Shown here in pieces: positions 50,270-51,217 of a stretch of DNA of 64,000 nt. A program made the translations under genes and the position numbers. The stretch is from the sequence record PV660452; one strand, given 5' to 3'. Every line of letters begins with the position of its first letter. Positions within the stretch are counted from its first letter, which is position 1. Source of the stretch: Escherichia phage LF82-9. Under the pieces are notes generated by a model. It worked only from the letters and a program-made list of their open reading frames with translations, made no database searches and was not told the origin of the DNA.

Positions 50270-50346
50270 TGGTCAGGGTGAAAGGATTCTAACCTTTAAC
50301 CTGCGGTTTAGAGGACCGCTACTCTATACAATTGAGTTACACCCCG
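50270..50346 (-). tRNA. tRNA-Arg (anticodon UCU)
   Basis: Hand-folded cloverleaf; T-loop TTAGAAT; anticodon loop CCTCTAA (C at position 33 atypical); CCA encoded. Confidence 0.6.
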
Positions 50347-50472
50347 TAATTAGTTCACAGCAATACCTACTCCAACAATCAAGATGTCTTCACACGAAAT
50401 TAAGAGAAGTGTGATCAGTTCAACCCCTATAATCGCGTCAAGTAGATATTAATGTGACAGTTGTCACAAGTT

Positions 50473-50547
50473 TGGCGGACATGCATGGATTCGAACCATG
50501 GACCAATTGATTAACAGTCAACTGCTCTACCACTGAGCTACACATCC
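50473..50547 (-). tRNA. tRNA-Asn (anticodon GUU)
   Basis: Cloverleaf with D-arm GCTCAGTGGTAGAGC, anticodon loop CTGTTAA, T-arm CATGGTTCGAATCCATG, CCA encoded. Confidence 0.7.
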
Positions 50548-50551
50548 AAAT

Positions 50552-50638
50552 TGGTGGGGAGTGGTGGAGTCGAACCACCCGAGTCGCAATGACAATGAAT
50601 TTACAGTCCACACCGCTACCTCTACGGGATAACTCCCC
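50552..50638 (-). tRNA. tRNA-Tyr (anticodon GUA), long variable arm
   Basis: Acceptor GGGGAGT/ACTCCCC, anticodon loop CTGTAAA, T-arm GGTGGTTCGACTCCACC. Confidence 0.6.
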
Positions 50639-50644
50639 TTAATT

Positions 50645-50719
50645 TGGTGGCCCTGGGTGGAATTGAACCACCATCTGGCGATTATGAGTCGCTTGCTTGA
50701 ACCTTCCAGCTACAGGGCC
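50645..50719 (-). tRNA. tRNA with CAU anticodon (Met or lysidine-modified Ile)
   Basis: Acceptor GGCCCTG/CAGGGCC, anticodon loop CTCATAA, T-loop TTCAATT. Confidence 0.6.
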
Positions 50720-50720
50720 T

Positions 50721-50796
50721 TGGTGCTGATTAACGGAATCGAACCGCCGACCTTCTCATTACAAGTGAGTTGCTCTACCTACTGAGCTAAATCAGC
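50721..50796 (-). tRNA. tRNA-Thr (anticodon UGU)
   Basis: Acceptor GCTGATT/AATCAGC, D-arm GCTCAGTAGGTAGAGC, anticodon loop CTTGTAA. Confidence 0.7.
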
Positions 50797-50801
50797 AAAA
50801 C

Positions 50802-50891
50802 TGGCGGAGGCGATAGGATTTGAACCTATGAGTCGCCGGAGCGACTGCCGGTTTTCAAGACCGGTGCATTAAACCACTCTGCCACGCCTCC
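50802..50891 (-). tRNA. tRNA-Ser (anticodon UGA), long variable arm
   Basis: Acceptor GGAGGCG/CGCCTCC, anticodon stem-loop CCGGT-CTTGAAA-ACCGG. Confidence 0.7.
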
Positions 50892-50893
50892 AG

Positions 50894-50967
50894 TCTCCAT
50901 ACAAGGATTTGAACCTTGGACCTCCTGATCCCAAATCAGGCGCTCTACCAAACTGAGCTACACGGAG
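50894..50967 (-). tRNA. tRNA-Pro (anticodon UGG)
   Basis: Acceptor CTCCGTG/TATGGAG, anticodon loop TTTGGGA, T-arm CAAGGTTCAAATCCTTG; CCA not encoded. Confidence 0.7.
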
Positions 50968-50977
50968 TAAATTAAAT

Positions 50978-51051
50978 TGGAGCGGATAATGAGAATCGAA
51001 CTCACATCATCAGATTGGAAGTCTGAGGTAATGCCATTATACGATATCCGC
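50978..51051 (-). tRNA. tRNA-Gly (anticodon UCC)
   Basis: GCGGATATCGTATAATGG...CTTCCAA...GAGTTCGATTCTCATTATCCGCTCCA, very close to T4 tRNA-Gly as recalled. Confidence 0.8.
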
Positions 51052-51056
51052 AAATT

Positions 51057-51143
51057 TGGTGCGAGAAGTGGGACTCGAACCCACAAGGAAATCATTCCGC
51101 AGCATTTTAAGTGCTGTGCCTTTACCAATTTGACCATTCTCGC
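51057..51143 (-). tRNA. tRNA-Leu (anticodon UAA), long variable arm
   Basis: Acceptor GCGAGAA, anticodon loop CTTAAAA, T-arm GTGGGTTCGAGTCCCAC, CCA encoded. Confidence 0.75.
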
Positions 51144-51144
51144 G

Positions 51145-51217
51145 CTGGGAATAAAGGACTCGAACCTTTGCATCCTGGAATCAAAATCCAGTGCCTTACC
51201 AACTTGGCTAATTCCCA
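51145..51217 (-). tRNA. tRNA-Gln (anticodon UUG)
   Basis: Acceptor TGGGAAT/ATTCCCA, anticodon loop TTTTGAT, abuts tRNA-Leu with 1-nt spacer as in T4 Gln-Leu dimer. Confidence 0.75.

Follow-up and report, generated by a model that had tools for sequence, protein, structure and literature searches.

The array of ten transfer RNA (tRNA) genes of Escherichia phage LF82-9 (sequence record PV660452, of which a stretch of 64,000 nucleotides, here called the window, was analysed) is closed by a tRNA-Arg(UCU) gene (50270..50346, minus strand) that has C in the place of the near-universal U at position 33 of the anticodon loop. The adjoining open reading frame (ORF), ORF184 (49694..50248, minus strand), is a nuclease candidate of the T5orf172/MUG113 (GIY-YIG-type) group, whose start codon stands 21 nt past the 3' end of the tRNA. 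Comparison of phage sequences points to a regularity behind this pairing, namely that tRNA genes abutting T5orf172 genes carry odd bases at positions 32 or 33; the mechanism is unproven. An earlier reading made by a model from the letters alone (the sequence-only reading) had treated C33 as an isolated oddity, while it turned out to be the mark of a mobile tRNA-plus-nuclease cassette. The array alone adds nothing new; the emerging rule is the alteration of the otherwise almost invariant positions 32 and 33 in tRNAs that touch a T5orf172 gene, and no report of a link between T5orf172 ORFs and odd anticodon loops was found in the literature searched.

The tRNA-Arg(UCU) Gene and Its C33

The anticodon arm of the tRNA-Arg consists of the stem GCGGU/ACCGC and a seven-nucleotide loop CCUCUAA, on which ARAGORN, the Rfam covariance model, and free-energy minimisation agree, so that position 33, which is window base 50313 and reads G on the plus strand, is C, just as in the loop CCTCTAA of the sequence-only reading, and another register or size of the loop is rejected. 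The identical 30-nt arm recurs in 15 GenBank phage records, one IMG/VR contig, and one metagenome contig, which rules out a sequencing error as the source of C33. Energy minimisation yields the cloverleaf as the most stable fold of the molecule, which scores 60.7 bits with the Rfam tRNA model RF00005 (gathering score 29). In eight distinct alleles of the gene 23/23 pairs are kept, 11 of them after change on both sides, a result reached by 0/500 shuffles.

Both the near-universal U33 and the near-universal pair G19-C56 are absent from this tRNA, which has C33 and a U19-A56 combination that still pairs. The tertiary pair 19-56 covaries among relatives, being U-A in the window, C-G in two further sequences (L330 and L331), and G-C in ordinary tRNAs. 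The two sequences with C19-G56 (L330 1406-1482 and L331 1406-1482) represent a third C33 allele of the Arg gene, so the elbow pair has three states. The E. coli arginyl-tRNA synthetase recognises A20, C35, U36 or G36, and A/G73. As A20, C35, U36, A/G73 (A73 in the window), and an encoded CCA end are all retained, the tRNA appears from its sequence to carry the elements for acceptance by this enzyme.

The relatives of the gene are Arg(UCU) genes of RB69-like phages, Gelderlandviruses, Gapriverviruses, Dhakaviruses, and some Tequatroviruses, and the window gene is an RB69-lineage allele in this sense. Common to the lineage are the D loop AAUUGUAUA and the T loop UUAGAAU, by which U19-A56 replaces G19-C56, and also A15-U48. 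The usual loop in most alleles is CUUCUAA, and C33 occurs in three diverged ones: the window type (also in REP2, REP3, teqskov, BCH953P2, TB004, UFV-AREG1, 236Ecol005PP, sutha, VR7, VR26, and ESCO10), the AV110 type, and the L330/L331 type. The entire array with C33 kept was found at 94% identity on one metagenome contig, and the IMG/VR pattern GCGGTCNTCTAAACCGC returned many unrelated U33 Arg tRNAs and no U33 version of the window allele.

Between the window and ESCO10 the tRNA-Arg differs at 1/77 bases, the change being compensatory, while the rest of the cassette differs by ~10%; a single change in 77 against this divergence has a probability of ~0.003 in a simple binomial estimate. Judged by this pattern of substitutions, the tRNA-Arg, C33 included, is under purifying selection, and by every test available here it is a working tRNA.

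As a separate observation, the annotated tRNA-Arg of the RB69 RefSeq record (L332 6784-6862) is 79 nt long and exceeds those of LF82-1 and Shf125875 by two G on the 5' side of the anticodon stem (AACGGGGACUUCUAAUCCGU); the added G residues may be either real or an old sequencing error.

Odd Anticodon Loops beside T5orf172 Genes

The 15 GenBank records that hold the exact C33 arm are the same 15 that hold an ORF184 homolog with at least 91% identity, which in each of them abuts the Arg(UCU) gene. Homologs of 77-79% in AV110, L330, and L331 also abut Arg(UCU) genes with C33, which are of the other alleles. More diverged homologs (54-63%) in Jiaodavirus KpV477, Winklervirus X20, Serratia phages (PS2), and L329 are paired with a T4-type Arg(UCU) whose loop GUUCUAA has the odd base at position 32 (G32). 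In T5-like phages homologs of 39-40% abut Arg(UCU) with G32 and those of 32-35% abut Lys(UUU) with C33, and distant T5orf172 ORFs in UFV01 and L331 abut Asn(GUU) with C33.

Arg(UCU) genes without a neighbour of the ORF184 family are canonical, with two exceptions; canonical genes without such a neighbour are those of T4, Sf21, LF82-1, SG1, TH41, S16, STP4-a, p000y, and SP15. In T4 itself the T4-type Arg allele has C32 and there is no ORF of the ORF184 family. When distinct tRNAs were counted over all the sequences collected, 15 odd and 7 canonical ones lay at most 30 nt from an ORF184-family ORF, against 21 odd and 496 canonical elsewhere, which corresponds to an odds ratio of 51 and a Fisher's p of 1e-14, a value that ignores relatedness and the exploratory choice of loci. 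C33 overall was present in 14/415 distinct phage tRNA sequences (3.4%).

Two neighbouring observations were made in these genomes. In the Shigella phage ESh27 (L295 1104-1210) an ORF184 homolog of 78% is kept, and a precise deletion between short CCAA..ATTTAT repeats has removed the tRNA-Arg gene; these repeats come after the CCA ends of the genes for CAU and Arg. A tRNA-Ile(GAU) with C33 (loop CCGAUAA) occurs in Jiaodavirus-like and T5-like contigs (L116 1922-1997, L121, and L305 2011-2086), where it is not directly beside a T5orf172 ORF; in L305 it is 88 nt from such an ORF.

The Cassette and the ORF184 Nuclease Candidate

The tRNA-Arg(C33) and ORF184 together form a mobile cassette of 640 bp (49717..50355, minus strand), defined by the breakpoints of homology with phage Sf21. 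This homology ends at 50356, 10 nt upstream of the Arg gene, and restarts at 49716, where the stable RNA gene rnaD starts. Between the breakpoints Sf21 has a tRNA-His, another Arg allele, and a 116-codon ORF, while the window has Arg(C33) and ORF184. In the Dhakaviruses ESCO10, VR7, and VR26 the unit of Arg gene and ORF stands after tRNA-CAU, and the ESCO10 cassette is 90.8% identical overall to that of the window. Altogether the cassette is spread over Dhakavirus, Tequatrovirus, Mosigvirus, and Karamvirus-like genomes. Presence and absence can be compared directly in AV110, with the order CAU, Arg(C33), ORF177, ORF114, and in LF82-1, with CAU, Arg(U33), ORF114. Thus the variable presence among close relatives with sharp boundaries, by which homing genes are recognised, was observed both for the window against Sf21 and LF82-1 and for AV110 against LF82-1.

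ORF184 matches the Pfam families MUG113 (38 bits, cutoff 22.3) and T5orf172 (27.9 bits, cutoff 20), as well as a PHROG of unknown function. It has a GIY-YIG fold with the conserved Tyr, Arg, and Glu, and its AlphaFold model, for which 11 database homologs served as input, reached a mean predicted local distance difference test (pLDDT) value of 91.6. The structural neighbours of the catalytic domain are all DNA nucleases (Slx1, I-TevI, UvrC, EndoII, and restriction enzymes).

Published work (PMC10448857) identifies T5orf172 genes with homing endonuclease genes, which sit at the borders of segments exchanged between phages, and the genes of this family in ICP1 and T5-like phages (Barth et al. 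2023, PMC10448857) resemble ORF184 in Pfam domain, catalytic-type residues, variable presence among close relatives, and position at an exchange boundary. Unlike ORF184, the published set mostly has Zn-finger domains and lies near terminase, reductase, or capsid genes; T4 was reported to be without T5orf172 genes, and no link to tRNA anticodon loops is reported there (PMC10448857).

A closer precedent by location is SegB of T4, a GIY-YIG enzyme that cuts tRNA genes and drives the inheritance of the T4 tRNA region (PMC2330249). Like segB, ORF184 is a free-standing gene of a GIY-YIG-superfamily nuclease among tRNA genes, patchy in relatives, and both are associated with the replacement of neighbouring tRNA alleles. 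Unlike SegB, ORF184 belongs to the T5orf172 branch, shows no detectable similarity to SegB beyond the fold, and is located downstream, not upstream, of the Arg gene. Also, SegB cuts the conserved T-arm of many tRNA genes, while the polymorphism linked to ORF184 is in the anticodon loop and ORF184 is a candidate nuclease.

Possible Mechanism and Alternative Explanations

The explanation that we prefer, tentatively and at a little less than an even chance, is that C33 protects the cassette's own tRNA gene from the linked homing-type nuclease, with the tRNA staying functional. According to it, the process would be intron-less homing: ORF184 would be a free-standing homing-type DNA endonuclease that cuts the canonical tRNA-Arg(UCU) genes of co-infecting or competing phages within or close to the part encoding the anticodon loop, and repair after cleavage would copy the donor nuclease gene together with the adjoining tRNA allele. 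Such a donor allele would have to resist its own nuclease and yet remain a working tRNA. Because the anticodon and A37/A38 are not free to change, the change would fall on position 33, or on position 32 in the sister lineage. The tRNA with C33 presumably still reads AGA, a codon several times commoner in the phage than in E. coli, and it is probably without N6-threonylcarbamoyladenosine at position 37 (t6A37), since C33 is an anti-determinant for the E. coli TsaBCDE enzymes (PMC8887486). This homing and self-immunity explanation would account for the fact that tRNA and ORF are strictly linked, for the boundaries of the cassette and its occurrence in several genera, and for the persistence of C33 while the sequence diverged by compensated changes.

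Several facts weigh against it. Cleavage, target site, and homing are inferred for ORF184 and its close homologs, and the substrate may be DNA or RNA. A lone loop substitution would be a weak immunity against enzymes that usually tolerate point changes in long sites. Zn-finger DNA-binding domains (CapR, DUF723, or DUF4397) are present in 87% of T5orf172 homing endonucleases (PMC10448857), whereas ORF184 lacks them: there is no Pfam match outside its nuclease domain, and its N-terminal 80 residues are a confidently modelled helical domain. The loci that form the association were gathered during exploration from related phages and represent perhaps four or five independent lineages. The rule also has gaps, since a canonical Lys stands beside the ORF in L305, the tRNA on the far flank of the ORF is canonical (Thr in KpV477 and X20), and C33 tRNAs occur without such an ORF nearby (Ile(GAU) in KpnM6E1 and several in L005). 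Replication in metagenomes yielded one close homolog only, in the same cassette with C33 kept, the rest being distant domain-only matches with no abutting tRNA.

The first alternative, evasion of a host nuclease, is unlikely. It supposes that a host anticodon nuclease depletes the host tRNA-Arg(UCU) and that the phage tRNA-Arg(UCU) withstands this nuclease thanks to C33, or to G32 in the sister lineage. The effect would be either direct, through a change of the base on the 5' side of the 33p34 bond, where PrrC-type enzymes cut, or indirect, through the loss of t6A37 or its cyclic form ct6A37; the neighbouring nuclease gene would merely mobilise a useful anti-defence cargo. That phage tRNAs may change their anticodon loops at nuclease cleavage sites is a published idea (PMC10264068), and phage tRNAs are known to defeat such defences: PARIS is countered by T5 tRNA-Lys, Thr, and Asn variants (PMC12409363), Septu by T6 tRNA-Tyr (PMC13096335), and retron-Eco7 by T5 tRNA-Tyr (PMC11555353). 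Overexpressed PrrC cuts tRNA-Arg(mnm5UCU) as its major substrate at the 33p34 junction (PMC2610378); C33 borders the very bond that PrrC cuts in tRNA-Lys and tRNA-Arg(UCU). PrrC is said to require ct6A37, and a U33C tRNA is left unmodified by E. coli TsaBCDE. The odd loops beside the ORFs are all in tRNAs that read ANN codons, Arg(UCU), Lys(UUU), and Asn(GUU), and these are classes hit by PrrC and PARIS. The SegB-linked tRNA-Tyr provides a precedent for a homing endonuclease with anti-defence tRNA cargo.

Evasion by itself, however, does not predict that odd loops sit only in the tRNA that abuts the ORF, and no natural defence aimed at tRNA-Arg(UCU) was found in the literature searched. Among C33 tRNAs the ANN-readers are in no significant excess when the Arg hits of the designed sample are left aside (4/10). 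The tRNA-Lys of the T5-like phage SP15, which rescues phages from PrrC170, has U33, and SP15 is without an ORF184 homolog; C33 as the basis of PrrC resistance in T5-like tRNA-Lys is accordingly unsupported. The nuclease-resistant phage tRNAs, that is, T5 tRNA-Lys/Thr/Asn against PARIS and those of the hypothesis of van den Berg et al. 2023, share with the window tRNA-Arg the reading of ANN codons and substitutions in the anticodon stem-loop relative to the host. Unlike the change at position 33, the resistance changes of T5 tRNA-Lys are at positions 39 and 41 (and 16); linkage to a phage nuclease gene is no part of that model, and discrimination of C33 by a nuclease is a proposal.

It is less probable still that C33 is a neutral or slightly harmful hitch-hiker, which arose once by chance beside a selfish nuclease gene and spread by linkage alone. 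A single origin would suffice for the three C33 Arg alleles, which form one clade with a shared G27, and C33 is tolerated in the other phage tRNAs counted above as well as in the initiator tRNAs of multicellular eukaryotes. These initiators are, like the tRNA-Arg, functional C33 molecules that read an ANN codon and have U36 and A37; they differ in acting in the P site and in having t6A enzymes that co-evolved to accept C33, a base that E. coli TsaBCDE rejects (PMC8887486). Hitch-hiking is opposed by the odd 32/33 bases that stand in separate lineages beside diverged ORFs (T4-type Arg with G32, T5-like Lys with C33, and Asn with C33) and by the maintenance of C33 while the stems changed by compensated substitutions.

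Only a small chance is given to an RNA-level pair of toxin and resistant tRNA, in which ORF184 would cleave the canonical tRNA-Arg(UCU) RNA of the host and of competing phages and the C33 tRNA would serve as the replacement, the whole acting as an exclusion or take-over module. The same linkage of tRNA and ORF speaks for this as for self-immunity in homing, ORF184 is co-transcribed 21 nt behind the tRNA-Arg, and the partners differ (Arg, Lys, Asn) with the change always at 32/33, a pattern no less compatible with recognition of a folded anticodon loop than with that of DNA. Yet the catalytic domain has only DNA nucleases as structural neighbours, the literature searched yielded no GIY-YIG or T5orf172 enzyme that cleaves RNA, and the destruction of host tRNA-Arg(UCU) would harm AGA decoding by the phage unless the phage tRNA is abundant.

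It is hardly credible that the Arg gene is a pseudogene in decay or was folded wrongly in the call, for instance in another loop register: the non-U33 and non-G19/C56 features do lower generic tRNA scores, and the gene is unannotated in several GenBank records (VR7, VR26, TB004), but the score is far above the gathering score, three methods give the same fold, pairing is 100% with the 11 double changes, the synthetase identity elements and CCA are retained, and the tRNA is far more conserved than the adjoining ORF184.

A wider proposition, which is doubtful, is that the T5orf172-family ORFs which abut tRNAs in T4-like and T5-like phages encode nucleases specific for anticodon loops, with either the tRNA gene or the tRNA as substrate, and that each is paired with a resistant C33 or G32 tRNA. 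They would constitute an unrecognised "nuclease plus immune tRNA" module that excludes competing phages or replaces host tRNA, and this would explain the repeated change of an almost invariant tRNA nucleotide. The altered tRNAs, Arg(UCU), Lys(UUU), and Asn(GUU), belong to the classes attacked by known anticodon nucleases. If self-immunity in homing is true, selfish nucleases shape the sequence of a functional RNA down to a universally conserved base; if defence evasion or the RNA-level pair of toxin and immunity is true, a new player enters the tRNA arms race between phages and bacteria. The mechanism is directly testable by comparison of the C33 and U33 alleles.

Origin of the Ten-tRNA Array

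Outside about 45.9-52.8 kb the window is nearly identical to Escherichia phage LF82-1 (99.7-100%): positions 20000-44000 are 100% identical to LF82-1 and its siblings, 43004-45931 are 99.7% and 52785-64000 are 99.8% identical, and Mosigviruses are the best-covering records across 44000-64000. Between about 48359 and 52784 the similarity to LF82-1 falls to 80-89%. This patch of 4.4 kb (48359..52784) in the LF82-1-like Mosigvirus backbone is Tequatrovirus-like: along 3 kb it is 97.9% identical to Tequatrovirus REP2, and its identity to Sf21, teqskov, and T4 is 94-96%; the first six tRNA genes are 96% identical to T4. At the corresponding locus no tRNA genes besides tRNA-CAU and tRNA-Arg are present in LF82-1, RB69, and other Mosigviruses. 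As the backbone is near-identical to the two-tRNA phage LF82-1 and the patch is Tequatrovirus-like, the ten-gene array arrived by recombination with a T4-like donor. The sequence-only reading, in which the phage was RB69-like without being identical to RB69, is therefore right for the backbone and wrong for the tRNA region, which is a recombinant patch and not a diverged RB69 locus; its statement that RB69 has far fewer tRNAs agrees with the two genes annotated there (tags t001 and t002). Together with LF82-1 the phage forms a natural near-isogenic pair with ten and two tRNA genes, in which the role of the extra tRNAs can be tested.

The array is an ordinary, already known T2/T6-type cluster of T-even phages moved by recombination, and not a new one. 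In T4 the order is Gln, Leu, Gly, Pro, Ser, Thr, Ile(CAU), segB, Arg, rnaD, rnaC. The window has the T2/T6-type order between the trna.2-4 ORFs and rnaD/rnaC, as one co-oriented unit of nine tRNAs, a spacer RNA, tRNA-Arg, ORF184, rnaD, rnaC, and a terminator-like hairpin. Contrary to the expectation that the ten-tRNA arrangement is peculiar to this phage, it was described in 2008 for T2L, RB1, and RB3 (PMC2330249), and the same ten genes are so annotated in many Tequatrovirus and some Mosigvirus records (e.g., Mosigvirus p000y). The region of T2L, RB1/RB3, and T6 (Brok-Volchanskaya et al. 2008, PMC2330249; Chihara et al. 2026, PMC13096335) resembles that of the window in the ten anticodons and their order, in the flanking trna.2-4 ORFs and species 1/2 RNAs, and in being a hot spot of nuclease-driven exchange; segB is missing from the window as it is from T2L. 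Unlike these phages, LF82-9 carries the array on a Mosigvirus backbone and has a 126-nt orphan spacer between Asn and Arg, and its Arg gene, the C33 allele, stands joined to a T5orf172 gene, an arrangement not described for the clusters in those papers.

Gene Calls and Codon Usage

When ARAGORN was run over the whole window, exactly 10 tRNA genes were called, all on the minus strand (the strand of every tRNA given here) between 50270 and 51217, in the transcription order Gln(UUG), Leu(UAA), Gly(UCC), Pro(UGG), Ser(UGA), Thr(UGU), CAU, Tyr(GUA), Asn(GUU), Arg(UCU). The ten identities and their order in the sequence-only reading thus stand, with the support of the ARAGORN calls and the Rfam scores, and the Arg loop is folded by ARAGORN as that reading had it. 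Nine of the ten genes score 59-73 bits with RF00005 (E 1e-11 to 6e-15). The remaining one, class II tRNA-Tyr (50552..50638), has its best match after clan competition with the tRNA-Sec model at 30.9 bits, under the cutoff of that model; its sequence is the same as that of an Sf21 gene whose GenBank annotation reads "tRNA-Tyr GTA; predicted by tRNAscan-SE".

The statement that the first seven genes and Arg match the T4 set is true of the anticodons and fails partly at the level of sequence. Leu (51057..51143, 59.3 bits) and Pro (50893..50967, 66.8 bits) equal T4, the class II Ser (50802..50891, 62.6 bits) equals T4 except for the called ends, and Gly (50978..51051, 63.3 bits) is one base off. 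Gln (51144..51217, 67.4 bits) has the T4 body with an entirely different anticodon arm (CUGGA-UUUUGAU-UCCAG), and Thr (50721..50796, 71.1 bits) likewise combines the T4 body with another anticodon arm, whose stem is unlike that of T4. The CAU gene (50645..50719, 59.9 bits) and the Arg gene are of other lineages; the former is distinct from T4 tRNA-Ile and is annotated as tRNA-Ile in REP2, and the T4 tRNA-Arg has no BLAST match in the window. From its GGCCC acceptor stem and anticodon arm the CAU gene is probably an Ile2-type tRNA, which would read AUA after lysidine modification. Tyr and Asn (50473..50547, 72.6 bits) are extra relative to T4, as the sequence-only reading had said, neither being present there.

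Whole anticodon stem-loops are swapped between T-even alleles with the remainder identical, as seen in Gln, Thr, and Asn against relatives (L001-L004 and L113); the Gln arm, for example, has as its other allele UAGCA-CUUUGAC-UGCUA, and comparable swaps occur in Pro, Thr, and Asn. In the tRNA-Asn of the window the 3' side of the anticodon arm, U36-A-A-U-C-A41, is the sequence reported around the cut of PARIS AriB in E. coli tRNA-Lys, and the other T-even allele (Sf21, p000y) has UAAGCG there. Of these two Asn alleles one may be sensitive to PARIS and the other resistant, as far as can be told from this likeness.

Codon usage was counted in 70 window ORFs with 15,421 codons. Per 1000 codons there are 6.5 AGA, 11.4 AUA, 33.0 UAU, 12.6 UAC, 35.1 AAU, and 21.7 AAC, in comparison with about 2 AGA, 4-5 AUA, 16 UAU, 12 UAC, 18 AAU, and 22 AAC in E. 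coli K-12 (Kazusa). Relative to these E. coli values, the codons that the phage tRNAs read occur 1.3 to 3 times as often in the phage, which fits codon supplementation.

The Spacer Element and the Downstream Stable RNAs

Between the Asn and Arg genes there is a gap of 126 nt (50347-50472), which the sequence-only reading did not mention. It holds a conserved structured RNA candidate of ~95 nt (50359..50453, minus strand) with a 14-bp closing helix and two inner hairpins. The segment 50356-50472 matches the sequence upstream of tRNA-His in other phages, with 96.6% identity in Sf21 and about 180 further Tequatrovirus records and 78-87% identity in Karamviruses, Jiaodaviruses, and Gelderlandviruses, so that the element stands directly 5' of tRNA-His in four T4-like genera, while the His gene is missing in the window and in STP4-a. 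As the His gene was replaced by the cassette in the window, the element was left orphaned there. In the closing helix three pairs are kept through both-sided changes (RNAalifold), a covariation that rests on about seven variants, and the single-sequence fold has z = -2.8; no Rfam match was obtained at E <= 1. An IMG/VR scan with TTGACGCG..GTGTGAAG was too unspecific (at least 120 hits, two of them true), and a scan with GGGTTGAACTGATCA added two further variants only.

The element may be a processing site or a small stable RNA. A promoter was considered and rejected, as a conserved TTGACG has no -10 partner at 16-18 nt and the scan finds no site in the spacer; overall the promoter scan gave fewer sites than in shuffles. 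Homology to rnaC or rnaD was rejected as well, because these map downstream at 49457-49719.

The rnaD homolog (T4 species 2 stable RNA; 49602..49719, minus strand, 99.2% identity) overlaps the last 26 nt of ORF184. It is followed by the rnaC homolog (T4 species 1 stable RNA; 49457..49595, minus strand, 98.6% identity) and by a terminator-like hairpin with a T run (49383..49406, minus strand), which is the probable end of the transcription unit.

Two related observations concern other phages. In the Enterobacter phage UFV01 (L115 1903-1997) the 95-nt "tRNA-Met" called by ARAGORN is in fact a tRNA-like RNA of the rnaC (species 1) kind that contains a long insert. The phage tRNA-His (Sf21, L002 2615-2690; homologs in L115-L117) has U at position -1 opposite C73 and no encoded G-1, which is the main identity element for the histidyl-tRNA synthetase in E. 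coli.

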